DNA of 32,000 nt, from positions 60,001-92,000 of the forward strand of contig NZ_CP045921.1 of the NCBI RefSeq assembly GCF_025273655.1. Direction: 5' to 3'. The notes under the pieces are model-generated. The model ran no database searches and was not told the DNA's origin. It saw only the letters and a program-made list of their open reading frames with translations. Shown piece by piece: positions 10,238-21,509 of this stretch. The number at the start of each line of letters is the position of its first letter. Positions within the stretch are counted from its first letter, which is position 1. This DNA is from Candidatus Saccharimonadota bacterium. GTDB lineage: Bacteria > Patescibacteriota > Saccharimonadia > Saccharimonadales > Saccharimonadaceae. The position numbers and the translations under genes were made by a program.

Positions 10238-11479
10238 TCAATGATACTGTCGTAGCGCTTCGATAGGATTTTTGCGAGCGGCACGCAGAGCTGGATAGAT
10301 GCCAAAAACGAGGCCGACGAGCATAGAGGTGCCGATTGAAGCGACAGGGACCCACCAAGTGAAGCCTGGGTTGAATGGCAAGAAGGTGCTAAGGAGAAGG
10401 GCGACGGCGTAGCCGAGGAGAAAACCGAAGACGCCACCGGATATGCTCATTACGAGCGCTTCGATGAGGAACTGGAATGTAATGTGATAGTTGCTGGCAC
10501 CGACGGCTTTGCGAATACCAATTTCGCGGGTACGCTCGGCAACGTTGGCTAGCATGATATTCATAATGCCGATACCGCCGATTATAAGTGCGATAGCCGA
10601 CACGAGCATCGCCACGACACCGACGAGATTGAACAAGAGTGATGTAGGCTTGGAGATCTGGTCGCCAGTGAGGACAGTGAAGTCTTTCTCCCCGTTGTGG
10701 TTGTCGGTGATGACTTTGTTGATCTGAGAGGTGAGAGCCGAGAGGTTGGCGGCATCTTTGGCTTTGACGTCAATCTGTCGGATCTGTGCAATGCCTTGGT
10801 TGAACGACTTACCGCTATCGAGGCTGATGATGACGGCGTCATTGACGTTCAGATTATTGTAGTTGATCGCGTCGTCGACTGTTTTGAGTACGCCGATGAC
10901 CGTGAACTGTTGGCCACGAACTTTGAATAGTTGACCGATGGACTGGTCGGTGCCGAACAGGTCGATCGAAAGCTGATGACCGATGACGGCGGTGTTTTGG
11001 TTGGTGATGTCGTCAATGAACTGGCCGTCTTGGATTTTGAGGTCGGAGACGGTGGCAAGAGCTGGGGTGGTAGCGACGATCGGCGCATCGGTGATTGTTT
11101 GTTTGCTATCATTTGTCTTCACGGAACCGTCGACTGACATGAGTGGTGCAGCATCGGCGACATTATCGAGCTCGGAGACGGTGCGATAATCTTTTTCGGT
11201 AAGTGAGCTGACTGCGAAGCTGTTGCCGCCGAGTGGCGCCACCATGTCCCGAAGGTTTTGTGGTGTCTGCTCAGTGCCGGGGCGGATAACGGCGATGTTG
11301 CCACCAAGTGCATCGACTTGATCGCTCACTAGCTTGGCGGCGCCATAGCTCAGTGCGAATATGACCGTCATACAGGCAACACCGAGCGTGATACCGAGGG
11401 TTGTGAGAAGCGTCCGGAGGCGATTACGGCGCAGAGATTCGCGGGCCACGCTGATGTGATTGACGATGAGAAGACGCAT
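10238..11479 (-). CDS. ABC transporter permease, MacB/FtsX family
   Basis: 413-aa ORF with an N-terminal TM, a large periplasmic MacB_PCD-like domain and a C-terminal FtsX 3-TM bundle (REIGIRKAVGAS motif). Confidence 0.9.
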   Translation of the reverse strand: MRLLIVNHISVARESLRRNRLRTLLTTLGITLGVACMTVIFALSYGAAKLVSDQVDALGGNIAVIRPGTEQTPQNLRDMVAPLGGNSFAVSSLTEKDYRTVSELDNVADAAPLMSVDGSVKTNDSKQTITDAPIVATTPALATVSDLKIQDGQFIDDITNQNTAVIGHQLSIDLFGTDQSIGQLFKVRGQQFTVIGVLKTVDDAINYNNLNVNDAVIISLDSGKSFNQGIAQIRQIDVKAKDAANLSALTSQINKVITDNHNGEKDFTVLTGDQISKPTSLLFNLVGVVAMLVSAIALIIGGIGIMNIMLANVAERTREIGIRKAVGASNYHITFQFLIEALVMSISGGVFGFLLGYAVALLLSTFLPFNPGFTWWVPVASIGTSMLVGLVFGIYPALRAARKNPIEALRQYH

Positions 11480-12274
11480 TTACTTTTTACCCTTTCGTGC
11501 ACGGCGAGTTGATTTGCTGCGACTGCCAAGACTAACTTTTTTTGCCGGGGCAGATGAACGGGTATTTTGGACGACAGTTGTCTTGGTGTCGGTATCGATC
11601 CGACCGTCGAGCATAGTGATCACACGGTCGGCGTAGGTGGTCATATCGGGATTGTGGGTTACCATGATGATTGTGTTGCCGCGACGGTGGATGTCGGACA
11701 ATTCTTCGAGGATGAGGTGGCTAGATTTGCTATCGAGATTGCCTGTCGGCTCGTCTGCCAGGATAATGCTGGGGTCGTTTACTAGGGCGCGGGCGATGGC
11801 CACGCGTTGGGTCTGTCCGCCAGAGAGCTGCCAGGGCATGTAGTATTCGCGTTCGTTGAGATGAAAAGTCTTCAGCATAGCGCTAGCTTTTTTGGCACTT
11901 TTAAGAGCTGGGGTTCCTGTATAAGCAAGGGGAAGTGCAACGTTTTCGATGACGTTCAGCCGTGGCACGAGATTGAAGCTCTGGAACACGAATCCGATAC
12001 GCTTGGAGCGGATAGCGGCGCGTTTGGCGCTGGTGAGGCGGGCAACTGATTTACCGTCGAGTCGGTAGTCGCCTTCATCTGGCTTGTCGAGAAGTCCTAG
12101 TACATTGAGGAGGCTTGTCTTGCCACAACCGCTCGGGCCCATAATGGCGATGAATTCGCCTTTTTTGATCTCGAGGTCTATATTGTCGAGCACAGTGTGT
12201 TCGGCGTCACCTATGCCGTAGCGTTTCGTGAGGCCTCTCAAAGATATGACTGGTGCCGAGTCAGCTTTTTTCAT
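11480..12274 (-). CDS. ABC transporter ATP-binding protein (MacB/LolD type)
   Basis: Walker A GPSGCGKTS, Q-loop, signature LSGGQTQRVAIARAL, Walker B ILADEPTGNLD, H-loop VTHN. The stop abuts the permease start. Confidence 0.93.
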   Translation of the reverse strand: MKKADSAPVISLRGLTKRYGIGDAEHTVLDNIDLEIKKGEFIAIMGPSGCGKTSLLNVLGLLDKPDEGDYRLDGKSVARLTSAKRAAIRSKRIGFVFQSFNLVPRLNVIENVALPLAYTGTPALKSAKKASAMLKTFHLNEREYYMPWQLSGGQTQRVAIARALVNDPSIILADEPTGNLDSKSSHLILEELSDIHRRGNTIIMVTHNPDMTTYADRVITMLDGRIDTDTKTTVVQNTRSSAPAKKVSLGSRSKSTRRARKGKK

Positions 12275-12448
12275 TCCTCCTATTATAGGGGGAACAACAG
12301 AGAAGAAGCAACCGTGAGCGTTATTTCTACATCATAATGTTGCGGATTTGGCTTAGGGTTGTCGTTATAGTGTGTGCGCATAGACTACAATTCGCATCAC
12401 GAAAGGGCTGTTTAGATGAGGGCGTCTTCGCTATAATGGAAACTCTAC

Positions 12449-12538
12449 GGAGAGGTGGCCGAGTGGTTGAAGGCGCACGCTTGGAAAGCGTGTGTGCCAG
12501 CAATGGTACCGCAGGTTCGAATCCTGTTCTCTCCGCCA
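12449..12538 (+). tRNA. tRNA-Ser (anticodon GGA), encoded CCA
   Basis: Hand-folded. Acceptor GGAGAGG/TCTCTCC, anticodon stem CACGC/GCGTG with loop TTGGAAA, long variable arm, T-loop GGTTCGAATCC, 3' GCCA. Confidence 0.9.
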
Positions 12539-12578
12539 TAGAAAATAGCTCGGTCTTGCAATCGAGCTATTTTCTATG
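12537..12578 (+). terminator. tRNA-3' hairpin with CATAGAAAAT / ATTTTCTATG arms
   Basis: catagaaaatagctcg (12537..12552) pairs perfectly with cgagctattttctatg (12563..12578). The stem starts inside the tRNA CCA end. Confidence 0.6.
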
Positions 12579-12648
12579 ATGTAGGAAGCGTTGATAGTCT
12601 CTCTATTTTTTCTAGTAATCCCCACAACGCTCATGCTATACTACCTGT

Positions 12649-13341
12649 ATGCAGCCACAAACACCTCAGGCCCCTCAGGTGCCGACTCCGGAGCAACCAC
12701 CCCAACCTCAAGTCGTGGAGCCGCAGCCGGTCGCTATGCCACAAGCGGTAGAGCCCGCTTCTCAGCAATCACAGTTTGCAGACGAGACGGCGCAACGCCA
12801 GACACCAATGGTAACCGTATCGATGGGCGAGGTGGCTATGGGCGAGACTGTAGACGGGCCGGAGCGGCAGAATGCCGAAGTGGGGGTAGTTGAATGGCAG
12901 GCTCAAGAATACATCACTACCGACAAAAATCCGATCTGGTATGCTGGACTCGGTGTATTTGTCGTCGTCGCGATCGCACTAGATGTATTTGTACTCAAGA
13001 CATATTTCACCGTGTCACTTCTCGCAATTGTGATCGCAGTTGTACTCATCGTGATGCACATACGACCAGCACGCATGATTAATTATCGGCTTGATGGGGA
13101 GGGCCTGCGTGTCGACGATGTACTCTATCCTATCGCCGAGTACAAGTCGTTTGGCGTATTGCACGACGGTAAAGAAAACACAATCCATCTGATACCTGTT
13201 AAGCGGTTCAAGCCAAGTTTGCAGGTGTATTTTCCGGTTGAGGTAGGTGAGTCTATCGTAGATTCACTAGGCGCACGTCTACCGATGGAAGAATTGCACC
13301 TCGACTTCGTCGATCGTATCGTCCACTTGTTCCGTCTGTAG
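12649..13341 (+). CDS. hypothetical membrane protein with Pro/Gln-rich N-terminus
   Basis: 230-aa ORF with an N-terminal PQ-rich low-complexity region, two TM helices (IWYAGLGVFVVVAIAL, FTVSLLAIVIAVVLIV), then a PH-like soluble domain. No named family recognised. Confidence 0.6.
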   Translation: MQPQTPQAPQVPTPEQPPQPQVVEPQPVAMPQAVEPASQQSQFADETAQRQTPMVTVSMGEVAMGETVDGPERQNAEVGVVEWQAQEYITTDKNPIWYAGLGVFVVVAIALDVFVLKTYFTVSLLAIVIAVVLIVMHIRPARMINYRLDGEGLRVDDVLYPIAEYKSFGVLHDGKENTIHLIPVKRFKPSLQVYFPVEVGESIVDSLGARLPMEELHLDFVDRIVHLFRL

Positions 13342-13370
13342 TTGATTTATAGCTCTATCTCTGTTATACT
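13342..13370 (+). promoter_or_regulatory. sigma-70-type promoter of tRNA-Arg
   Basis: TTGATT (13342..13347), a 17-nt spacer, then TATACT (13365..13370), about 30 nt upstream of the tRNA. Confidence 0.45.
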
Positions 13371-13401
13371 TGCTGTTAGTGTCAAATTTTGACAAACCTG
13401 A

Positions 13402-13478
13402 GCACCCGTAGCTCAGCTGGATAGAGCGTTGGCTTGCGGAGCCAAAGGCCATAGGTTCGAATCCTGTCGGGTGTACCA
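13402..13478 (+). tRNA. tRNA-Arg (anticodon GCG as read from loop TTGCGGA), encoded CCA
   Basis: Hand-folded, 77 nt. Acceptor GCACCCG/CGGGTGT (G1-U72 wobble), D-arm GCTC-AGCTGGATA-GAGC with A20, anticodon stem TTGGC/GCCAA, T-loop GGTTCGAATCC, discriminator A, CCA. Confidence 0.85.
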
Positions 13479-15095
13479 TACTTGAATTAGAGACGCTATT
13501 GCGTCTTTTTTCATCTGTTCTGGATAGGTTTGGACCTTCAAGAACTGCTTTTCAAGAGACGGATACTTTTCAACTAGTGGAGTTAGATATTCTATAGGCT
13601 CAAACAGTAGTACGCCATCTTTCAGTAATAGGTTTTGACCAATAATGCTCAAGACTTCTTTCTTTTTTAAGTCATTATCACTTTCGAAGTCATATTTAGC
13701 ATATCGTGCGAAATTAAAGTACTTCTCTAGCAGTTGACGTTGACGCTTGTTTGAGTTCTCCTGGTCATCAAATTGACCCCTCAATGTAATAAGCCTGTCT
13801 TCAAGCTCTTGCTTCTCGGATTTATAAAAAGTTTCGTCAATCATACCTTTATATAAAGCACGTTGTAGTTTGTTCACCTCAGCTTCTGTATTTTTAATAG
13901 CTTTCATCTGAGTCTCGATTACTTTTTCTTGCTTCTCTGCTTCATCTTCGTGGAACTCGTCTAAATACTCACAAGTCCATTTGAAGAAGTCTTCAATAAT
14001 CGTATACTTGCTAATCTCATTTCGAATAGCTTTGGTTAAATCTTGTGGAGTTATCCTGCTAACGGTCATTGTCTGCGAGCATTCAGAGTACTTCTTTTTT
14101 CGAGTACAGTAACAGTATTCGTATGTATGTACGTTTCCATTCTTCTGTTTCTTGACTATTTTAGAATATGTAATCAGGCAACCGCATTCTCCACACTTAA
14201 CTAGACCACGATATGGGAATGGGTCATCTAGGGCTATCTTTTCTTCTGGTCGAGGCTGGTTTGCCCGACCTATCATTCCTTGCACTTGTCGAAACTCCTC
14301 TGGTGTAATCATAGGCGAATGTTTACCTTCTGTGTGGTAGATTCCAGAGAAGCGAATAGCACCCATATAGAAAGGATTCTTAAACATTAAATACAGTCCA
14401 GATACTGACAGTGGTTTATTTCCAGATTTTTTACGTTTAGGAGTTTTAAGCCCCCACTCTTTATCAGCAATTCTTGCTATTTGACTAACAGAGTATTGAC
14501 CCGTAAGGGCGTAGTCCCACATTCTTCGCACTAGTGCATATCTAGCGTCATCAATGACGATTACATTGACATCACTGAACTCGCTTTCTTTCGCATTCTT
14601 GTAGCCTATTGGAACTCTGCCAGGATAATAGCCATTTTTAGCCCTTTGCGACATTCGGTCTTTTACAATTATTGATAAATCACGACTAAACTGAGTATCT
14701 TGAGCTGCGTCTATGCTAAATATAAGGGCGTTATCTTCTGGAAGGTAGTTTTTATCCTTGGTAATAATAGCTTTAAGTTTGCCATCAAACATTAGCTGCT
14801 GGATAACTCCACTCTCTTTTGGATTACGAGCTAAGCGATTAGATTTATAGGTAAGAATAGCGTTTATATTACCTTTTTCTATTTGTTCGATAAGCTCATC
14901 AAACTTTATCCGCTGGTCTGGTATCTTTGCAGATTTAGATTCCTTATATATCGCTTTTTTGACGATACGATATTCTCTTGCTTCTGCAATTTCGGTCATT
15001 GTTTCTAGTTGGTCATCTAGTGACGCAATTTGTTTGTCTTCGCTTTCGTTAGACTTTCTTGCGTAAAGTCCGTATTTCAGTTGTTCTAAGTTCAT
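13413..15095 (-). CDS. large serine recombinase (integrase)
   Basis: N-terminal resolvase domain with YARKSNESEDKQIASLDDQ (catalytic Ser), a recombinase domain, the zinc-ribbon cysteines CGECGC...YCYC and a C-terminal coiled coil. Start set at the ATG at 15095 (MNLEQLKYGLYARKS). The last 18 codons lie antisense inside the tRNA-Arg gene. Confidence 0.9.
   Translation of the reverse strand: MNLEQLKYGLYARKSNESEDKQIASLDDQLETMTEIAEAREYRIVKKAIYKESKSAKIPDQRIKFDELIEQIEKGNINAILTYKSNRLARNPKESGVIQQLMFDGKLKAIITKDKNYLPEDNALIFSIDAAQDTQFSRDLSIIVKDRMSQRAKNGYYPGRVPIGYKNAKESEFSDVNVIVIDDARYALVRRMWDYALTGQYSVSQIARIADKEWGLKTPKRKKSGNKPLSVSGLYLMFKNPFYMGAIRFSGIYHTEGKHSPMITPEEFRQVQGMIGRANQPRPEEKIALDDPFPYRGLVKCGECGCLITYSKIVKKQKNGNVHTYEYCYCTRKKKYSECSQTMTVSRITPQDLTKAIRNEISKYTIIEDFFKWTCEYLDEFHEDEAEKQEKVIETQMKAIKNTEAEVNKLQRALYKGMIDETFYKSEKQELEDRLITLRGQFDDQENSNKRQRQLLEKYFNFARYAKYDFESDNDLKKKEVLSIIGQNLLLKDGVLLFEPIEYLTPLVEKYPSLEKQFLKVQTYPEQMKKDAIASLIQVWYTRQDSNLWPLAPQANALSS
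13469..13480. repeat. attL core: 12-bp direct repeat GGGTGTACCATA (last 10 nt of tRNA-Arg plus 2 nt)
   Basis: An identical 12-mer recurs at 21433..21444. The composition shift starts here. Confidence 0.7.
13491..13511 (+). terminator. element-supplied terminator directly after tRNA-Arg
   Basis: agacgc-tatt-gcgtct followed by TTTTTT, 12 nt after the CCA end. It replaces the native hairpin now stranded at 21440..21480. Confidence 0.5.
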
Positions 15096-15218
15096 AGTTT
15101 TCCTATCTATATTATATAACTTTATTAGTATTATGTTAAACAATTAGTTTATGTTTATAGAGGTGGTGGTCTACACTGTGGGATTAAGTGAGTGAAGCAA
15201 AAATGTATACACCTATAA

Positions 15219-16259
15219 CTAATCATTTTTTGCGGCACTCGGCTCGTCAGAGGGTAAATAGTATTTATAAGAATTACGCCCACCAGGTAGTACTCTTACC
15301 ATCTCTGTACGAGCTAGCTCATCTAGGCAGTCGCTAATCTTTTTATCACCACCTTTGAACCCATCTGTCTTAATTTGTGCTACAAGCTGCCTTTTAGATA
15401 ATCCAGGATATAACCCTACTGCTTCTACAATTTCTTTCAGCTGTTCATTGTGTCGGTCTGCTGACGACTTTCCTTCGCCTACATATTCAAACTCTGTAGC
15501 ATTCTCGTGAAACCTCAGTTCAAATGGGGCTGGCTCCCAAATATCTCTATTCTTGGTTTGTGTAAGTCTTACGAACTCGCTTTGACCAACACGGTTTACT
15601 GCAATGTGACAATCTGCGGCAGCTAAAATGTCGGAAGAACCACGCATTTCCATTGCTGGATTGCTTTGCCCTGCGACACCTTTTCGGTTGTGGTGCAGAA
15701 TCAATACTGCAAGTCCTGTATCCGCCAACTGCCTATAGCAGTCCATAAGCGTAGCCATATCACCAGAAGCGTTTTCATCAGCATTATTGAAGCGGGTAAA
15801 GGAATCAAATATAACTAAGCCAATTTCTTTTTCTTTAGCTTCTTTTGCGATTGCGTCTACATATAAATGGTTCATCTTATAGCCAATTCTGGAAGTAAAA
15901 TGAATCTCTGTATTTTCAGAAGCTCCCATTTGTTTGAACCGCTTTTGTAGTCTCTGTCGTCCACTCTCTTCATCAATAACCATTACCCCCATCTGTTTAG
16001 AAGGGAAATGTCCAAACACACTCTCACCCTGAGCAACTTTCACTGCCATCTCCATATATAGCCAAGTTTTGAAACTTCCAGGTGAGCCTGAGATGATTGT
16101 TACTCCCTCGGCTGGTATTAAGCCTTCTATAGCCCAAACTTCTGGCGGAAACTCCTCTAGCAACAAATCGCTCAATCGTTCAGTAGAGAGCCTTAGCTGG
16201 CCTGTCTGTGTACCTTTTTCCCAAAGCTCTTTGTATCGGTTGCGATTTGGAGAGGTCAT
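15219..16259 (-). CDS. RepA/AAA_25-type (RecA-fold, DnaB-C-like) replication ATPase with C-terminal winged helix
   Basis: Walker A GSPGSFKT, Walker B GLVIFDSFTRF, ILHHNRK sensor motif. The C-terminus GLSKRQLVAQI...LDELARTEMVRV is wHTH-like. Confidence 0.7.
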   Translation of the reverse strand: MTSPNRNRYKELWEKGTQTGQLRLSTERLSDLLLEEFPPEVWAIEGLIPAEGVTIISGSPGSFKTWLYMEMAVKVAQGESVFGHFPSKQMGVMVIDEESGRQRLQKRFKQMGASENTEIHFTSRIGYKMNHLYVDAIAKEAKEKEIGLVIFDSFTRFNNADENASGDMATLMDCYRQLADTGLAVLILHHNRKGVAGQSNPAMEMRGSSDILAAADCHIAVNRVGQSEFVRLTQTKNRDIWEPAPFELRFHENATEFEYVGEGKSSADRHNEQLKEIVEAVGLYPGLSKRQLVAQIKTDGFKGGDKKISDCLDELARTEMVRVLPGGRNSYKYYLPSDEPSAAKND

Positions 16260-16408
16260 TTCCTAGCTCCATAATTCGGTTGTGTTAAGTAGACTAGGCG
16301 TATCAAAGCCATTCCATCTACGATTGCTTTTTGTTTACTTATCTTCTTGCCGAAGTTTTTCTTGTAGAGTACTTGAAACTCTTTTATTTGCTTTTCTTTT
16401 AACTGCAT
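16256..16408 (-). CDS. small hypothetical protein (50 aa), not in ORF track
   Basis: ATG at 16408 preceded by AGGTGG 6 nt upstream. My translation is MQLKEKQIKEFQVLYKKNFGKKISKQKAIVDGMALIRLVYLTQPNYGARK. Its TGA overlaps the ATG of the ATPase gene (ATGA), which suggests translational coupling. Confidence 0.45.
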   Translation of the reverse strand: MQLKEKQIKEFQVLYKKNFGKKISKQKAIVDGMALIRLVYLTQPNYGARK

Positions 16409-16672
16409 ATTTTTACCACCTGTTACTCTAATTTTTGACGCACTTAACCAGCCCAGTCGTGGATTGAATCCAGCTAAGTTAAGGCAATTAGAATAGAATG
16501 CTTACAAAGTTATTCGTAAACGATTACTAATTATTATTTGTGACTGTTTTACTTCTTCTCTATATCTTTAAGATGTTTCTCCCTTTGTTTATTGGTTTTC
16601 TGTCGTTAGCTTTTCTTATGTGACTGCTGTTGAATCGTATATGTACGGTGATTCGTTAGTCGCTTGCTGAAA

Positions 16673-16695
16673 AACTAAGTTCCACTATAGGGAGG
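16673..16695 (+). promoter_or_regulatory. T7/K11-type single-subunit phage RNA polymerase promoter look-alike
   Basis: AACTAAGTTCCACTATAGGGAGG. The 12-mer CACTATAGGGAG (16683..16694) is identical to positions -7..+5 of the T7 consensus TAATACGACTCACTATAGGGAGA, giving 16/23 matches overall. It lies in non-coding DNA. Confidence 0.25.
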
Positions 16696-16700
16696 GGGCT

Positions 16701-16738
16701 GTTAGGACTTAGCAATAACTTGTTAGGATATGTTAGTA
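16701..16738. repeat. three phased GTTAG(G/T)A direct repeats (iteron- or operator-like)
   Basis: GTTAGGA at 16701 and 16722, GTTAGTA at 16732. The spacings of 21 and 10 nt are approximately whole helical turns. Confidence 0.3.
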
Positions 16739-16746
16739 ACAGATGT

Positions 16747-16779
16747 AAAAAACGAAAAAACCGCCGTATTACGGGCGGT
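16747..16779 (-). terminator. rho-independent terminator of the 16799..17305 gene
   Basis: On the minus strand, an accgcccg/cggcggt-type hairpin (16760..16779) is followed by TTTTTTCGTTTTTT, 20 nt after the stop. Confidence 0.6.
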
Positions 16780-16798
16780 ATGTTCAAGTTCAGTTATA

Positions 16799-17305
16799 TT
16801 AGTTTCGAGTGATTCTCAGACGATATTCGTCATTAACGGAAGTTCGTTCTTTACTGCGTTTGAATAAATCAGTTTTTAATCCAAGCTTCCTACCTTTATC
16901 ATTTAAGCGTCGAACAGCTTGTTCTACGCCTCTTCGGGATTCTTTAAGTTTTGCAAGAGATACGGCATTATCTCTAGCTTCAAACACTGCATAGTCGTCA
17001 ATATATTTATTAGGAGAGTTGAATGTTATTTTACATACATAGTGTTCAAGAGATTTTGGTTCAATTCTTATTTTATTATCGCCTGAATGGAGTTCGGTTT
17101 CTTTCAGGTCATACCAAATAGAGTTCTTCAAGAGAGACTTTGCGGCTATGTTATTCTTCCTTTTCTTATAAAGGATTGGTGCAAAATACCAAACCGCCAT
17201 ACCTAAAGCCATAAGGGAAAGAATTGCGTACACTACAAGAAAGATATTATTAAACTCAGGGTCTACTTCTATCTGCGGTGTATTGAATGCAAAGTATTTA
17301 TTCAT
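16799..17305 (-). CDS. hypothetical N-terminally membrane-anchored protein
   Basis: 168-aa ORF with one TM helix (IFLVVYAILSLMALGMAVWYFAPILY). The C-terminal part, ending in RRGVEQAVRRLNDKGRKLGL, is faintly reminiscent of the recognition helix/wing of OmpR/PhoB-type DNA-binding domains. Confidence 0.5.
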   Translation of the reverse strand: MNKYFAFNTPQIEVDPEFNNIFLVVYAILSLMALGMAVWYFAPILYKKRKNNIAAKSLLKNSIWYDLKETELHSGDNKIRIEPKSLEHYVCKITFNSPNKYIDDYAVFEARDNAVSLAKLKESRRGVEQAVRRLNDKGRKLGLKTDLFKRSKERTSVNDEYRLRITRN

Positions 17306-17427
17306 AGCTATTTATATTGTAAGCGATTTGGATATTCTGACGGTGATTTCGTTATATGTAAGAAATTGAAAAAGCTATTCTCTCTATAATAAGAGTAGAG
17401 ATAAAACAAATATAAACAGGAGTTTTT

Positions 17428-17751
17428 ATGGTTAATAAAAAACCAATAGGTAGACCACAAAAAGTTAATTATCAGATTATAAGTAAATTGGAGGACTCAT
17501 TGCAGTACGGGTCTACTATTTCAGAAGCTTGTTACTACGCTGGAATTAGTAGGGATACATTTTACCGTTACTTCCGTGAAGATAGAATCTTTGCTGAAAA
17601 AATGGAACTTGCACGAAATAAGCTGCTAACAATCGCTAAATCAAATGTTAGTAGAGCGATAATAGAAGGTGATTATGAGAGCAGTTTATGGCTATTAGAA
17701 AAGGTCGTTACTCCCTCTCTAGCTATTGCTGACGAAGTGCCGAGGGTATAA
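17428..17751 (+). CDS. phage-type HTH DNA-binding protein (terminase-small-subunit-like N-terminal fold)
   Basis: 107 aa with GRPQK...STISEACYYAGISRDTFYRYFRED..FAEKMELARNK...SLWLLEK. This pattern matches my memory of TerS-like/HTH_23-like phage proteins. RBS AGGAG upstream. Confidence 0.55.
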   Translation: MVNKKPIGRPQKVNYQIISKLEDSLQYGSTISEACYYAGISRDTFYRYFREDRIFAEKMELARNKLLTIAKSNVSRAIIEGDYESSLWLLEKVVTPSLAIADEVPRV

Positions 17752-17754
17752 ATA

Positions 17755-18246
17755 ATGGAAGAGTACGAGTTTTTCTATGCCGATATTGAAGCAGATTCGA
17801 TATTTCTAAGTAGGTATAACGTAGGAGATTTTATACACGCTAATAATGGCGTAGTAGCTTCTAGGCTCAAGGGAGGTTTACTGACGAACTGTAATGTACG
17901 ATTCTCCTTCGTGCCTCACCCACAAGGATTTTTAGGTTACAGAGTTGAAGATGAAGATTGGAAAAATCAACAACTATTTATTTTTGACAAAGACTGGCGT
18001 TTCAAAGTTGAAGACAGGTTCTTTTACGATGGCGTTTTTCAAATCTTAATGTCGCATATAGATTGGGAGGACTTTGGTGAGAAAAAAATTATCGAAGCTG
18101 CTAGAAAAGACTTCAAGAAGCTTTATAAACAACCGCCTGTAGATGTTCTAAATAATGTGGAATGGAAGCGAAGAGTTAGGAAAGTTCCTGGTGTTGATGG
18201 GAAGAACAGTCCCTACAAAGGTTTTCTGACAATGTATTGGAAATAG
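17755..18246 (+). CDS. hypothetical protein
   Basis: 163-aa ORF starting 3 nt after the previous stop. Trp/Phe/Asp-rich. No motif recognised. Confidence 0.5.
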   Translation: MEEYEFFYADIEADSIFLSRYNVGDFIHANNGVVASRLKGGLLTNCNVRFSFVPHPQGFLGYRVEDEDWKNQQLFIFDKDWRFKVEDRFFYDGVFQILMSHIDWEDFGEKKIIEAARKDFKKLYKQPPVDVLNNVEWKRRVRKVPGVDGKNSPYKGFLTMYWK

Positions 18247-18293
18247 CCTATGTAACGTCACTGATAATTATTATTTGACTGTCAGATTAACAG

Positions 18294-18512
18294 CTAAATA
18301 TCTTTAAATAAGTCTGCTATATCTACTTTCAATGAGCTTGCAATCTTATTTAATGTACCGAGTCTAGCCCACCGCTTACCAGTTTCGATATATGCAATTG
18401 CTACGACGCTCATACTAATACTTTCGGCTAATTGTTGTTGCGTTACGCCTTTACTTTTTCGTACTACTGCAACACGCTTGCCAAATGTTTTCATCAATTC
18501 GTTTTCATTCAT
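18294..18512 (-). CDS. XRE (Cro/CI-type) HTH transcriptional regulator
   Basis: 72 aa with FGKRVAVVRKSKGVTQQQLAESISMSVVAIAYIETGKRWARLGTLNKIASSLKV, a canonical HTH_3 domain. Confidence 0.85.
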   Translation of the reverse strand: MNENELMKTFGKRVAVVRKSKGVTQQQLAESISMSVVAIAYIETGKRWARLGTLNKIASSLKVDIADLFKDI

Positions 18513-18525
18513 ATCATAAGCGTAA

Positions 18526-18566
18526 AATAATAAACAGATAGTTACATAAACTAGCTGTTTATTATT
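18526..18566. promoter_or_regulatory. 12-bp perfect inverted repeat upstream of the XRE gene (candidate operator)
   Basis: aataataaacag (18526..18537) and ctgtttattatt (18555..18566) with a 17-nt spacer, starting 14 nt upstream of the XRE start, in the divergent region toward the 18707 gene. Confidence 0.4.
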
Positions 18567-18706
18567 ACTTAATTAACGGGGTTGTACTGTTATATAAAAA
18601 GTATTGATAAATAGTTAATGGTGTTTGCCCGCTAACAAATATATAGGTATTGATGTTGTATAGTAAACGTAAATGATTAATTCAAAATGAAATTAGGAGC
18701 TTAGAA

Positions 18707-19351
18707 ATGTCATTCTTCGACAAGGTTAAAGATGCAAGTGATAAAGCTGGTAAATCAATTCAGAAGAGCTATCAAGAGCAACAGCAGAAGTCAGCCGAAC
18801 TAAAGGATATTAGAGGGGCTAAACTAGACGCTCTAGCTGTGGAGTATATGGGTGGATACGGTGATGGTCGTAAAGCGAATGGCATTATTACTTTTTACCA
18901 AAACCAAACAGAGTTCAGTGCTGTTATGAGTACAAAGTTCACTATACCTAATTCTCAAATCAAAGACATTCTTGTAGAAGGTAAAGATGAAGTTAATAGG
19001 CGTGTTACCGTAACCCGACTTATTGCAGTTGGTATATTTGCTTTTGCACTCAAGAAGAAGAGCAAAGACCAAGAATCGTATATCACGCTTGAACTTATTG
19101 ATGGTCAAGAAGTTATTTTATTCGTGGAAAATAAAGCACCTATGGCTTTGAGAGCTAAATTAGCTAAGGTTATCTCGTCTGTTAAACAAGTTAGTGCATC
19201 ACACCAAGTAGTCTCTGCTCAGCCGCAACCACGAGTAAGCATAGCTGATGAACTCGGTAAACTCGCTAACCTCAAAGAACAAGGTATATTGACCCAAGCT
19301 GAGTTTGATACAGAAAAAGCTAAAGTACTTAACGGTAGGACGTCTATATGA
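18707..19351 (+). CDS. PH-like domain / SHOCT domain protein
   Basis: 214 aa. The C-terminus IADELGKLANLKEQGILTQAEFDTEKAKVL is a SHOCT motif. The middle region (GIITFYQNQTEF...ILVEG...VTVTR..ITLELIDGQEVILFV) looks like a bacterial PH/YokE-like domain. RBS AGGAG. Confidence 0.65.
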   Translation: MSFFDKVKDASDKAGKSIQKSYQEQQQKSAELKDIRGAKLDALAVEYMGGYGDGRKANGIITFYQNQTEFSAVMSTKFTIPNSQIKDILVEGKDEVNRRVTVTRLIAVGIFAFALKKKSKDQESYITLELIDGQEVILFVENKAPMALRAKLAKVISSVKQVSASHQVVSAQPQPRVSIADELGKLANLKEQGILTQAEFDTEKAKVLNGRTSI

Positions 19352-19842
19352 CCCAACAAAATCAAAAGAAAGAAATGTCTAAAGGTATTTATTTCTTAAT
19401 GTTGATTCCAATCCTTATGTTTGGAGTTCTAGGTGGACTTATTGGATTTATGGGTGACAATCCCGACCCCCTATCAGGATTTTTATGGGGAGCGGGTATT
19501 GGGCTTGCAGTATGTGTCATAACATTCATCGGAATGTACGGATGGGAGTGGATTAAAAAGGAAGTTGAAAAAGGACGATTGCTACCGTTCATTATAATTG
19601 GCGTTATTGCTGCCGTTGTAGTCAGTGCATACTTGGGAATGAGTTTAGGCGGACCTTCTTGTGTGGAGTCGGATACAGATAATAGGGGCAGTAGCTGTGT
19701 CGAATATGCAGACGATGGCTACGAAGCTACCGGCGACCAGAAATGGGATAAGTTTTGGAGTACCCTGCCTATTACTGTTATCATCGCTTCTCTAATTGCT
19801 GTTATCGTTCGCAATCAGATGGAAAAAGATAAGAAAAAATAA
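19348..19842 (+). CDS. hypothetical 4-TM membrane protein with Cys-containing acidic loop
   Basis: 164 aa. The ATG overlaps the upstream TGA (ATGA). Four hydrophobic helices. Loop GGPSCVESDTDNRGSSCVEYADDGYEATGD. Confidence 0.6.
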   Translation: MTQQNQKKEMSKGIYFLMLIPILMFGVLGGLIGFMGDNPDPLSGFLWGAGIGLAVCVITFIGMYGWEWIKKEVEKGRLLPFIIIGVIAAVVVSAYLGMSLGGPSCVESDTDNRGSSCVEYADDGYEATGDQKWDKFWSTLPITVIIASLIAVIVRNQMEKDKKK

Positions 19843-20127
19843 AATCTTAAAAGATTCTTATGGATACTCAACGACTATTTAGAGAGACAATTGTTCGAGC
19901 AATACCACCCTATCGCTAACACAATCTTTCCTAACGGAACTTACTATGGAAGAAGTGTATTGGGGAACGAAGGAGAATCCATTTCAGTCTCTGAATGGAA
20001 CCCTGATATGGTTACTGTCAAAATACATAAGGGTGAATTCAATGGATTCTCGGACGGCAAGGCTCACTTTCGTTAAGTATATAAATTGTATATATCTACA
20101 CTATAAATTGTCTATTTTCTATCCAAC

Positions 20128-20454
20128 CTAATGCGTAGCGCCACTACCTAGTTCAATCATAAGCACACCTCCAATTACAACGGCAATACCAATGGACATA
20201 ACTAACGTCAGATGTTCTTTGAATAGTAGTTTGCTAAAAATCGCAGTAAGAGCAACTCCTGACGCTGCCCATATACCGTAAGCGACACCGAGGGCCATAC
20301 CGCTAGAAAGTGTAAAAATCAGCATTGTAAAGGCAATAGTATATCCAACCGCAACAGCTACCCACCATCGACGCTTGCCTGAGCTTGCCATCCGTAATGA
20401 AAGTGCTCCTGATACCTCGGCAATAATTGCACCGATAAGAAATAACCAACCCAT
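20128..20454 (-). CDS. small multidrug resistance (SMR) transporter subunit, second of a pair
   Basis: 108 aa, 4 TM. TM1 glutamate in GAIIAEVSGALSLR, plus GVAYGIWAASGVALTA. Its start overlaps the upstream stop (TAATG). Confidence 0.85.
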   Translation of the reverse strand: MGWLFLIGAIIAEVSGALSLRMASSGKRRWWVAVAVGYTIAFTMLIFTLSSGMALGVAYGIWAASGVALTAIFSKLLFKEHLTLVMSIGIAVVIGGVLMIELGSGATH

Positions 20455-20801
20455 TATACGTTTCCTTTCTCTTTTCTAGTTGCAGCCTGTGAACCTAATT
20501 CAATCATTAGTACGCCAGCAATAATTACTACAATCCCTAGTACCATAATCGAGGTTAAAGGTTCGTTAAAAATCAAATGTGATAGGAACGCAGTCATTGC
20601 TACACCACAAGCACCCCATATCCCATAAGCTACCCCTAGAGCCATACCTGATTTAAGTGCTTTTGTTAAAAACACAAAAGCTAATACATAACCTATCAAT
20701 ACCACTATATAGAAAATTGAATTATCCATCCCTGCCTTCAATGAAAGTGTAGCTACTACTTCCGAAATGATAGCTCCGACTAGAAATATCCATTGTTTCA
20801 T
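20454..20801 (-). CDS. small multidrug resistance (SMR) transporter subunit, first of a pair
   Basis: 115 aa, 4 TM. TM1 glutamate in GAIISEVVATLSLK, plus GVAYGIWGACGVAMTA. Its start overlaps the tetR stop (TAATG). Confidence 0.85.
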   Translation of the reverse strand: MKQWIFLVGAIISEVVATLSLKAGMDNSIFYIVVLIGYVLAFVFLTKALKSGMALGVAYGIWGACGVAMTAFLSHLIFNEPLTSIMVLGIVVIIAGVLMIELGSQAATRKEKGNV

Positions 20802-21322
20802 TATTTTACTCCTTCTTTTAGTATTTTCTCTGAGACGTCTAAGATTGACTGCCTCTCTTCGACACTTATGTTCAACATCCCCAAGCCTCTATCGAACCAA
20901 GCCCCATCAGCGATAAGTCGAACAGTCATCAATGCAGACCGCCTAGTAATGTCCGTAATATCGTAAAAGTTGAACCAAGCTTCAATCTGTTTAGCCCATT
21001 TAGCGTAAAGCTCATCTTTTAATTTGTAGTCAGCCATAAAGGCGAAATCTGATGAGTCTATTTCGTCAGACATTGCATACCTAAGGTAAGTCATCATCCT
21101 GTCTTCGGCGTTAGGTTTAGCAGGAGTTGCGTCAAGCATTAATTGCCATCTTTCTACGACATCATTCACAAGACCCATCATAAGCGATTTTTTTGTAGGA
21201 TAGTGATGCACTAGTCCTGCTTTAGTTAATCCTATATCACGAGCGACGGAATCAAGCGAAACCGTTTCCCCGTTTTTTATACGTTCCTGTGCAGCTTTAA
21301 TAATATCTTTTTTCTGAATCAT
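20801..21322 (-). CDS. TetR/AcrR family transcriptional regulator
   Basis: 173 aa with the N-terminal HTH IIKAAQERIKNGETVSLDSVARDIGLTKAGLVHHYPTKKSL. First gene of the tetR-smr-smr operon. Confidence 0.85.
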   Translation of the reverse strand: MIQKKDIIKAAQERIKNGETVSLDSVARDIGLTKAGLVHHYPTKKSLMMGLVNDVVERWQLMLDATPAKPNAEDRMMTYLRYAMSDEIDSSDFAFMADYKLKDELYAKWAKQIEAWFNFYDITDITRRSALMTVRLIADGAWFDRGLGMLNISVEERQSILDVSEKILKEGVK

Positions 21323-21331
21323 AATACCATA

Positions 21332-21345
21332 CTACCATATGGTAG
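21332..21345. promoter_or_regulatory. perfect 14-bp palindrome CTACCATATGGTAG (candidate TetR operator)
   Basis: Located 10 nt upstream of the tetR ATG (21322) and preceded by a partial repeat, ATACCATA. Confidence 0.5.
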
Positions 21346-21432
21346 GTTTATTAACAATATAATCTTTGGACGGTATTTATTTATATCAAGTTACGATATT
21401 ACTTGTAATGATGGTTTGAACTTCTTTAACTA

Positions 21433-21444
21433 GGGTGTACCATA
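21433..21444. repeat. attR core: second copy of GGGTGTACCATA (orphan tRNA-Arg 3' end)
   Basis: Identical to 13469..13480. Followed by the host-type tRNA hairpin. Composition returns to the host level here. Confidence 0.7.
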
Positions 21445-21480
21445 GAAAATTCCCCACCATGCGTGGGGAATTTTCTATGG
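21440..21480 (+). terminator. orphaned native tRNA-Arg 3' hairpin (CCATAGAAAAT arms)
   Basis: ccatagaaaattccccac (21440..21457) pairs perfectly with gtggggaattttctatgg (21463..21480): an 18-bp stem with a 5-nt loop. Confidence 0.65.
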
Positions 21481-21509
21481 TCTCAGTAGTCTTGTTATAA
21501 TAAATCTAT

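Follow-up and report, generated by a model that had tools for sequence, protein, structure and literature searches.

The 32,000-nucleotide stretch of Candidatus Saccharimonadota DNA examined here (contig NZ_CP045921.1 of assembly GCF_025273655.1, positions 60,001 to 92,000; hereafter the window, numbered from its first letter) holds an AT-rich integrative element in the 3′ end of a tRNA-Arg gene, with the gene for a large serine recombinase (LSR) at its left end. The features that define the insertion are the following:

13402 to 13478, plus strand: tRNA-Arg gene (anticodon GCG), the integration target, called by ARAGORN and by Rfam RF00005 (68.5 bits)
13413 to 15095, minus strand: LSR gene, 560 amino acids (aa), matching PF00239, PF07508 and PF13408, and integrase family phrog_95
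13469 to 13480, plus strand: attL core, the 10-bp GGGTGTACCA that forms the tRNA 3′ end with its CCA, extended by TA to 12 bp in this host
13479 to 21442: the integrative element, 38% GC and 7,964 bp long with the core included once
13489 to 13514, plus strand: intrinsic terminator that the element supplies to the tRNA, with a stem of 8 bp followed by a T-run
15111 to 15139, minus strand: promoter-like site TTAACA-17-TATAAT upstream of the integrase ATG, a consensus match only (11 of 12 positions)
21433 to 21444, plus strand: attR core, an orphan copy of the tRNA 3′ end
21439 to 21481, plus strand: host terminator hairpin of the uninterrupted tRNA-Arg, a perfect 19-bp stem starting inside ACCA

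The boundaries proposed in a preliminary description of this DNA, which was made from the sequence alone, hold up well. The 12-bp direct repeat GGGTGTACCATA is present in exactly two copies in the window, starting at 13469 and 21433, and such a pair is not expected by chance: the expectation is 0.10 matches when up to one mismatch is allowed, and two or more copies were found in 0 of 100 shuffles. The right-hand copy had been read as an orphan tRNA 3′ end followed by a hairpin of the host type, and a perfect 19-bp stem (dG -32.8 kcal/mol, z -6.8) does indeed stand directly 3′ of it. The claimed sharp shift in composition is equally evident at both ends, with GC values of 0.31-0.42 per 500-nt bin throughout 13501-21500 and of 0.47-0.56 in the adjoining bins, and overall values of 0.380 for the island, 0.526 for the left flank and 0.507 for the right. 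The tRNA-Arg is intact despite the insertion, which has moved the host terminator hairpin 8 kb away from it. ARAGORN found no tmRNA in the window. Where the description needs amending is in the length of the site. After comparing 10 insertion contexts we dropped 12 bp as the true core, since the element has only the 10-bp GGGTGTACCA in common from host to host. This is the final 10 nt of the tRNA with its CCA, and the TA that follows it is a coincidence of this host's flank.

Two features of the host tRNA locus itself were also noted. The native tRNA-Arg terminator stem starts inside the encoded ACCA in many Saccharibacteria hosts (e.g. GTACCAAGAAAAAAAGACG...CGTCTTTTTTTCTTGGTAC), being seen at 21439-21481 of the window and in the flanks of loci L093, L094, L097, L100 and L104; the primary transcript of such hosts would have the tRNA 3′ end locked up in its terminator helix. 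In addition, the T-loop of the host tRNA-Arg is polymorphic, reading GGTTCGAATCC in the window versus GGTTCAAATCC in empty-site strains and relatives (L003, L153, L101, L104), and two metagenome contigs (L001, L004) end exactly before this polymorphism.

The integrase and its recombination products

A serine rather than a tyrosine recombinase had been named as the agent of mobility, and the LSR is indeed the only recombinase of the element. Its domains are arranged in the order Resolvase (PF00239, E=1.8e-12, 48 bits, cut-off 23.3), Recombinase (PF07508, 33.8 bits, cut-off 21.1) and Zn_ribbon_recom. Residues Y11, A12, R13, K14, S15, Q22, R62, R87 and R90 are invariant in 21 homologues, as are the zinc-ligand cysteines C301, C304, C330 and C339 in the same alignment, and the segment from about residue 380 to 450 looks helical as judged from sequence only. 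The open reading frame (ORF) meets no stop until 13413, inside the tRNA, so that its last 22 codons are tRNA antisense and the core lies within it. The tail of the protein, comprising the last ~20 residues, is therefore tRNA antisense in the integrated form (560 aa) and is read from the other end of the element in the attP form (557 aa).

For the att sites we searched public assemblies, and contigs with an empty site were reached through proteins similar to the one of 230 aa encoded in the left flank. A strain of the same species (L153), with a flank protein 99% identical to that of the window, carries an empty attB: it aligns to window positions 11422-13480 (99.56%) and then straight to 21433-21497, and the 12-bp repeat is exactly what the two segments have in common, so that the empty site has a single copy of it. 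The attB that had been reconstructed on paper as tRNA-Arg plus hairpin is accordingly found in nature, with position 13480 joined directly to 21433. More distant relatives (L104-L107) likewise have the tRNA-Arg followed directly by a homologous host hairpin, with no island. An empty-site pattern gave 0 matches in JGI contigs; the real same-species empty site, which is in ENA, is one base off the searched pattern (GAACATT). Two contigs of a single Logan run meet exactly at the core, one stopping and the other beginning there, and we infer that these breaks reflect the k=31 assembly graph of coexisting occupied and empty alleles.

The reciprocal product was reached through the protein that it should encode. 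The attP form of the integrase was predicted to be 557 aa long, with the tail LVKEVQTIITSNIVT read from the right end of the element, and an exact-sequence look-up in ENA returned this very protein (P0229). Its contig, L154, is 2.7 kb long and aligns at 100% to window positions 15988-13469 and then to 21444-21198, the overlap again being the 12-bp repeat. At the junction the right end of the element, which bears the TetR-family gene, is joined through TTTAACTA-GGGTGTACCA-TACTTGAATTAG to its integrase end, as predicted for attP. The mobility ascribed to the element is thus borne out by a natural junction of 21444 to 13469. One copy of the core, 10-12 bp long, is present in each of the four sites (attL and attR in the window, attB in L153, attP in L154), and because all four occur in nature with one repeat copy per product, we conclude that recombination is conservative and site-specific. 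We therefore consider it highly probable that the LSR mediates both integration and excision of the element at the tRNA-Arg 3′ end, and that the element is active or very recently active.

Alternatively, the attP of L154 could stem from a head-to-tail chromosomal tandem rather than from a free circle, in which case the element would integrate efficiently but rarely or never excise alone. The contig is short and does not give its own topology, and tandem or accreted arrays do exist in relatives. In L098 (2238-3740) the right end of the element adjoins a further LSR gene, whose Resolvase and Recombinase parts are separate ORFs, and in L108 (11540-12954) the 3′ end of an LSR gene is joined to an arm resembling the right end of the element, with a tRNA-Arg(tct) 1.2 kb further on; both are tandem or remnant arrays. 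Nevertheless, empty sites exist within the same species (L153), the contigs of one run break exactly at the core as coexisting alleles would, and a tandem would itself arise from a circle integrating into attL or attR. We thus regard a purely tandem origin as unlikely, though not negligible, and continue to favor integration and excision by the LSR.

The locus of one related genome without the 8-kb island (L101 6700-7110; also L102) looks scarred. A complete tRNA-Arg is preceded, at a distance of 75 nt, by an 18-nt fragment of the tRNA 5′ end (GCATCAGTAGCTCAGCTG), and ~165 nt downstream of it comes an orphan 19-nt 3′ fragment (AATCCTGTCGGGTGTACTA), followed by a hairpin of the window type. The arrangement looks like an older tRNA whose middle was exchanged for a segment bearing a tRNA.

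The element is widely spread among hosts. Copies in at least nine chromosomal contexts are 98.3-99.98% identical over the shared 3.2-4.8 kb, and the right end is identical up to ...TTTAACTAGGGTGTACCA in ten places, after which come nine unrelated flanks, each with a hairpin of its own. Over the 541-aa head of the integrase there are 0 differences, yet five different tRNA-encoded tails follow it, from which we conclude that the same element resides in several distinct tRNA-Arg genes. Integrases that are 99-100% identical occur in three different GTDB species representatives, and the exact TetR protein was found in 2180 indexed blocks of an assembly collection and on at least 1000 contigs. Megablast of the whole island against plasmids and phages gave no match. 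The preliminary description had also argued for a donor unlike the host, on the strength of low GC and of ATGA/TAATG gene overlaps. The low GC is real, and the flanks of the host copies range in GC from 0.377 to 0.513; because the 38% GC of the element matches that of the low-GC hosts in this range, a low-GC Saccharibacteria lineage is the simplest home and donor. The overlaps are real too, yet they are ordinary features of operons and do not signal foreign origin.

The integrase clade and the embedded terminator

Relatives of the integrase were collected by a protein search (798 at E<=1e-10) and by a scan of GTDB species representatives (554), and loci were compared for the best 80 of the GTDB relatives, with labels taken from record titles. 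Of the 73 loci that have sequence beyond the gene end, 59 show a convergent tRNA that overlaps or adjoins the 3′ end of the integrase gene, and in 50 of these 59 the antisense CCA is in frame and is read as an invariant Trp. Across the clade, 17 anticodon types are used. Within the Arg clade, for which alone attR and element size are known, repeats are 8-12 bp long and elements measure 4.3-10.3 kb; direct-repeat searches in more distant relatives mostly failed (cores under 8 bp, or elements reaching beyond the 10-kb flank). The use of tRNA ends by an LSR had been called uncommon, which is true of the literature but not of this clade, where it is the rule. The clade is also remote from characterized enzymes: the identity of the window integrase to LSRs of annotated phages and plasmids is 26% or less, its relatives on IMG/VR viral contigs are ~30% identical, it matches solved structures at E ~1e-4, and it scores far below the NCBIfam cut-offs for XisF and CcrB. 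Full-text literature searches returned no paper that connects serine recombinases with tRNA genes and with Patescibacteria or Saccharibacteria, although large island databases may hold undescribed loci of this kind. Judging from these comparisons, the LSR belongs to a large and apparently undescribed clade, mostly from Patescibacteria, that is specialized on tRNA 3′ ends.

Patescibacteria names are attached to about two thirds of the best 80 relatives, the others being labelled otherwise. About 15 of these 80 loci come from metagenome-assembled genomes (MAGs) titled Gammaproteobacteria, Pseudomonadales, Bdellovibrionales, Neomarinimicrobiota, Saganbacteria or Melainabacteria (L031-L033, L050, L052, L056, L057, L063, L065, L082, L086, L024, L070, L072 and L084), and most of them share the tRNA-overlap architecture. 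Either the clade reaches beyond Patescibacteria or those bins are mislabelled.

The insertion separates the tRNA from its native terminator, and the preliminary description had proposed that the element supplies a replacement (placed at 13491..13511). The hairpin in question, at 13489..13514 (dG -13.6, z -5.0), lies within the codons for KKDAIASL at the end of the integrase gene, and its T-run, read on the opposite strand, encodes the conserved "KK" of the protein. A GC-rich hairpin with a T-run ~10 nt past the tRNA end, inside the last integrase codons, is present in 42 of 53 clade loci and in 19 of 530 control windows of the same genes. RNAalifold alone yields a weak consensus energy for the terminator, its hairpin shifting register by 1-2 nt, and because this shift weakens the consensus we relied on an explicit count of pairs with controls. 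By this count, 81.8% of cells are paired versus 63.7% in shuffled alignments and 32-60% in slid controls, and double-change cells number 60 versus 25.7 expected, a value that 0 of 500 shuffles reached. The hairpin is thus conserved and covarying across the integrase family, which gives good support to its role as a replacement terminator for the tRNA.

The overlap of integrase gene and tRNA raises the possibility of an integration-dependent switch, in which the 15 C-terminal residues of the attP form are swapped for the tRNA-antisense tail upon integration and the stability or directionality of the enzyme is thereby altered. Integration-dependent immunity was reportedly described in cluster G/N/P mycobacteriophages by Broussard et al. 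in 2013. That the ORF runs through the core, in the window as in most relatives, that the antisense CCA keeps the same frame in so many loci, and that both the 560-aa and the 557-aa forms occur in assemblies are all compatible with such a switch. However, the tail varies freely with the host tRNA, as the five tails on an identical head illustrate, and a simpler reason for the conserved frame is that the coding sequence fixes the spacing of attP and terminator. Single-nucleotide polymorphisms in the host tRNA moreover put a stop codon in the antisense tail in L011, L014 and L020 (…WYTRQDLNL, then the stop). Such truncation makes the tail swap probably non-functional, and the annotated length of the integrase thus depends on the host tRNA allele. 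A functional tail swap was considered as our principal interpretation and dropped for these reasons; we now view it as quite improbable.

More improbable still, to the point that we would be very surprised to see it confirmed, is that the island is an immobile fossil, that its repeat is coincidental, or that a tyrosine integrase acts on it in trans with the LSR as a mere resolvase. The classical status of tRNA 3′ ends as targets of tyrosine integrases speaks for the last of these. Yet Pfam detects no tyrosine recombinase (Phage_integrase) domain in any ORF of the island, in which no unassigned ORF of at least 100 aa is left, and the evidence already described, namely the non-random repeat, the observed attB and attP products, the near-identical copies in at least nine contexts and the recurrence of the integrase-tRNA juxtaposition in related loci, is all at odds with these explanations. 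The LSR thus stays our choice as the enzyme that moves the element.

Beyond the integrase, we looked for genes of the island that recur across the clade. Three are relevant here:

15219 to 16259, minus strand: AAA_25 (RepA/DnaB-like) ATPase (PF13481, E=1e-34; primase and helicase PHROGs)
16256 to 16408, minus strand: 50-aa two-helix protein, its ORF overlapping the start of the ATPase gene (AlphaFold2 pLDDT 86)
17428 to 17751, plus strand: 107-aa helix-turn-helix (HTH) protein, resembling a terminase small subunit (TerS) or an excisionase (phrog_4102, E=9e-14; weak HTH_7 and TIGR01764)

With an iterative profile, a homologue of the 50-aa protein was found in 60 of 62 loci having at least 2.5 kb of upstream sequence, always on the integrase strand and upstream of the integrase, at distances of 23-4,500 nt. 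No other gene of the island is conserved throughout the clade; AAA_25 alone recurs, in 13 loci, and the 107-aa HTH gene is present in 3 of 80. The AlphaFold2 model of the 50-aa protein is a confident two-helix hairpin, and its co-occurrence with the integrase makes it a candidate directionality factor or regulator. The AAA_25 ATPase, for its part, is a probable replication protein of the excised element, going by its family.

Proposed mechanism and comparison with known systems

The organization of the att sites suggests how the integrase might recognize them. Two further features are relevant:

13473 to 13474 (attR equivalent 21437 to 21438), plus strand: predicted crossover dinucleotide, the non-palindromic GT at the center of the dyad GGT-GT-ACC, from symmetry and the LSR paradigm
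21414 to 21424, plus strand: attP P-arm motif GTTTGAACTTC, conserved in Arg-clade elements with constant spacing to the core

To judge from the recombination products, the crossover falls within the repeat, and the arms that flank the core in attP match at 8 of 14 symmetric positions around it. In the Arg clade, P arms have (GTTTG)AACTTC in common, always equally far from the core. Set against the tRNA side of attB, the P arm fits best in a register that lies 4-5 bp outward, in the window and in 4 of 5 other Arg-clade elements. The motif thus appears to resemble the T-arm of the tRNA moved outward by 4-5 bp, and this likeness may be functional. The offset recalls a model of the A118 integrase, reportedly put forward by Rutherford et al. 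in 2013, in which the motif of the zinc-ribbon domain is shifted by 5 bp between attB and attP half-sites.

According to the mechanism that we propose, the LSR inserts the element by conservative recombination into the last 10 nt (GGGTGTACCA) of tRNA-Arg genes. The tRNA acceptor and T-arm would serve as the specific half-site of attB, the downstream half-site being tolerant of variation, and the P arm of attP would mimic the T-arm 4-5 bp further out, in the manner of the zinc-ribbon-domain motif of characterized LSR sites. Strand exchange would take place at the central GT of GGT-GT-ACC. The tRNA stays whole, and as the host terminator is displaced, the hairpin and T-run embedded in the integrase gene take over; they would both give the tRNA its 3′ end and shield the convergent integrase gene from tRNA read-through. 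Excision would need a directionality factor, for which the 50-aa ORF is the best candidate and the 107-aa HTH protein the alternative. The AAA_25 protein would then replicate the excised circle, and spread from cell to cell would proceed via natural transformation or, as the alternative, packaging by a helper phage.

Several points weigh against this proposal or against its generality. The mechanism is drawn from sequence data, which locate strand exchange only to within the 10 bp of identity. The right half-site of attB is not conserved between hosts, a pattern uncommon among LSR sites that our account of recognition covers only in part. The match of the window protein to PF13408 (Zn_ribbon_recom), a domain recorded for many of its homologues, scores 23.9 bits, just under the cut-off of 25.3. 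The attP contig is open to the tandem origin discussed above, and the attP pattern AACTAGGGTGTACCATACTTGAA had 0 matches in IMG/VR and JGI metagenome contigs; the stops in the antisense tail make a functional tail swap improbable. The directionality factors among the genes of the element are candidates only: for the 50-aa protein, the homology search returned only seven near-identical sequences and no informative match, and Foldseek found no PDB match for its model at E<=0.001 and no informative fold. As to transfer, no capsid or other transfer gene was found in the element, and Pfam, PHROGs and NCBIfam scans gave no relaxase or coupling-protein match in the island, which may still have an oriT. 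Finally, "Patescibacteria-wide" rests on record titles, and some members of the clade are in MAGs titled as other phyla.

Taking all of this together, we tentatively entertain a joint reading, one to which we would give rather less than an even chance, of a tRNA-specialized lineage, with this element as its best-documented member, that is spread through Patescibacteria, uses the near-universal T-arm, acceptor and CCA end as a half-site, superimposes three codes on the same DNA and employs the 50-aa protein as its directionality factor. If this reading is correct, recognition of T-arm, acceptor and CCA would let the lineage hop among at least 17 tRNA types via small changes, and some 45 bp would carry the last codons of the integrase, the P′ arm of attP and the replacement terminator all at once. 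It would also mean that nature offers a minimal, host-matched integration toolkit for bacteria of the candidate phyla radiation (CPR), and that the element is what carries a small multidrug-resistance (SMR) efflux cassette in a sweep now under way through Saccharibacteria.

The closest described analogues, on the basis of their published description, are the ssrA islands of Dehalococcoides (McMurdie et al. 2011, PMC3146451). Those islands carry an LSR of ~540 aa, DsiB, on the reverse strand next to attL; their 20-bp ssrA repeat is embedded in the integrase gene, with the crossover in the T-loop; they have low GC and adaptive cargo and form tandem arrays; and their module also holds DsiA (a small serine recombinase) and ParB, Mom-like and RecF-like genes (PMC3146451). 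The element described here is similar in that its LSR adjoins attL on the reverse strand, its repeat is embedded in the integrase gene and is the 3′ end of a structured RNA, its GC is low, it bears cargo, and its relatives form tandems. It differs in its target, tRNA-Arg (with 16 other tRNA types in the clade), and in its 10-bp core at the acceptor/CCA end; in having, according to Pfam, no second Resolvase domain and no ParB, Mom-like or RecF-like gene; and in possessing the conserved 50-aa partner and the embedded tRNA terminator.

With the LSRs of phages and integrative and conjugative elements (A118/LI, TP901-1, Bxb1, phiC31, CcrB, XisF) the integrase shares the Resolvase-Recombinase-zinc ribbon order, the catalytic Ser and Arg and the four Cys, and the system shares small att sites with short identity, a dyad around what would be the central dinucleotide and conservative reciprocal products. 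In the literature, tRNA and tmRNA sites are typical of tyrosine integrases, whereas elements with serine recombinases insert within genes and disrupt them. Known LSRs usually do so in protein-coding genes, while the element preserves the tRNA 3′ end, and the whole clade thus departs from the textbook rule by keeping its target gene. The resemblance to tRNA and tmRNA islands of tyrosine integrases (Williams 2002; Islander/TIGER) lies in the tRNA-end repeat, the intact tRNA, the adjacent integrase and the AT-rich composition. In contrast to those islands, the element relies on an unrelated recombinase chemistry, has a core of 10 bp rather than the typical 15-50 or more, has no arm-type sites and places attP within the integrase coding sequence. 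These comparisons are of interest in several respects. Mobile elements of CPR bacteria and Patescibacteria have barely been described, and the overlap of a coding sequence, a recombination site and a terminator offers a clean case of constraint acting on one sequence in multiple layers. Moreover, a compact integrase whose natural attP and attB are known, with attB present in many Saccharibacteria, is a candidate tool for organisms that have only lately become tractable.

Other genes and cargo of the element

The rest of the element is occupied by the following features:

16760 to 16779: terminator-like hairpin 3′ of the 168-aa gene
16799 to 17305, minus strand: 168-aa protein with one hydrophobic segment, no family match
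17755 to 18246, plus strand: 163-aa protein, no family match
18294 to 18512, minus strand: 72-aa cI/RstR-like HTH repressor (Pfam HTH_31/HTH_3 on the identical gene in L006)
18526 to 18566: inverted repeat with 18-nt arms in the divergent promoter region between the cI-like and SHOCT genes, a likely operator
18707 to 19351, plus strand: 214-aa protein with a C-terminal SHOCT domain (PF09851)
19348 to 19842, plus strand: 164-aa membrane protein, only weak matches
20128 to 20801, minus strand: pair of SMR genes that overlap and encode proteins of 115 aa and 108 aa, an EbrAB/Qac-like paired efflux pump, cargo
20801 to 21322, minus strand: TetR-family regulator of the pump operon (PF17937)
21332 to 21345: 14-bp palindrome CTACCATATGGTAG just upstream of the TetR start, a likely operator

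For the 50-, 168- and 163-aa proteins there was no usable Pfam match at E up to 5, and PADLOC found no defense-system match for the unknown genes of the element. The 50-aa ORF and the 168-aa gene are separated by a 390-nt AT-rich stretch without ORFs (16409-16798), bounded by the terminator-like hairpin at 16760-16779, in which no iterons were detected and which may be a regulatory or replication-origin region.

Several of these genes invite the view that the element is a phage satellite, similar to a phage-inducible chromosomal island, that excises, replicates and is packaged by a helper phage of Saccharibacteria, a view that is compatible with the integration mechanism. It is small and has candidates for all four roles of a satellite island: the integrase at one end, a cI-like protein as master repressor, a primase/helicase-like gene for pri/rep and a TerS-like HTH protein for packaging. 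Accessory cargo lies at the far end. The 107-aa protein matches three further TerS PHROGs more weakly than phrog_4102, the repressor comes with a divergent promoter and an inverted repeat, the AAA_25 ATPase matches phage primase and helicase PHROGs, and both the 8-kb size and the very wide dissemination would fit. However, the TerS match covers only the HTH-containing N-terminal part of a 166-position profile and falls in a region that also matches resolvase and excisionase HTH models, and the gene is rare in related loci, as noted above. Capsid-remodelling and interference genes are missing from the element, no helper is known, and neither the element nor its attP is present in IMG/VR, where the integrase has only the distant relatives already mentioned. 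We therefore judge a satellite lifestyle to be unlikely, and a degree less likely than the tandem origin of attP; integration and excision by the LSR, our preferred reading, is indifferent to the outcome.

The clearest cargo is the efflux pump. Both members of the SMR pair match PF00893 (Multi_Drug_Res; E=1.4e-18 and 3.6e-18), and their best NCBIfam models are EbrA/B and Qac. All of these models score below their equivalog cut-offs, and a substrate is for that reason not assignable, but family membership suggests that the pump probably exports cationic toxic compounds. A regulated efflux pump on so widespread an element is relevant to the spread of resistance in the phylum of Saccharibacteria. 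The cargo region is also shared with a variant of the element in L094, which is 98.3% identical to that of the window over the SMR/TetR/SHOCT part. At 7139-8522 of L094, a CARF_Card1 gene and a SMODS gene (CBASS-type cyclase) replace the module formed by the 72-aa HTH, 163-aa and 107-aa genes, from which we conclude that the middle of the element is an exchangeable slot able to hold defense genes.

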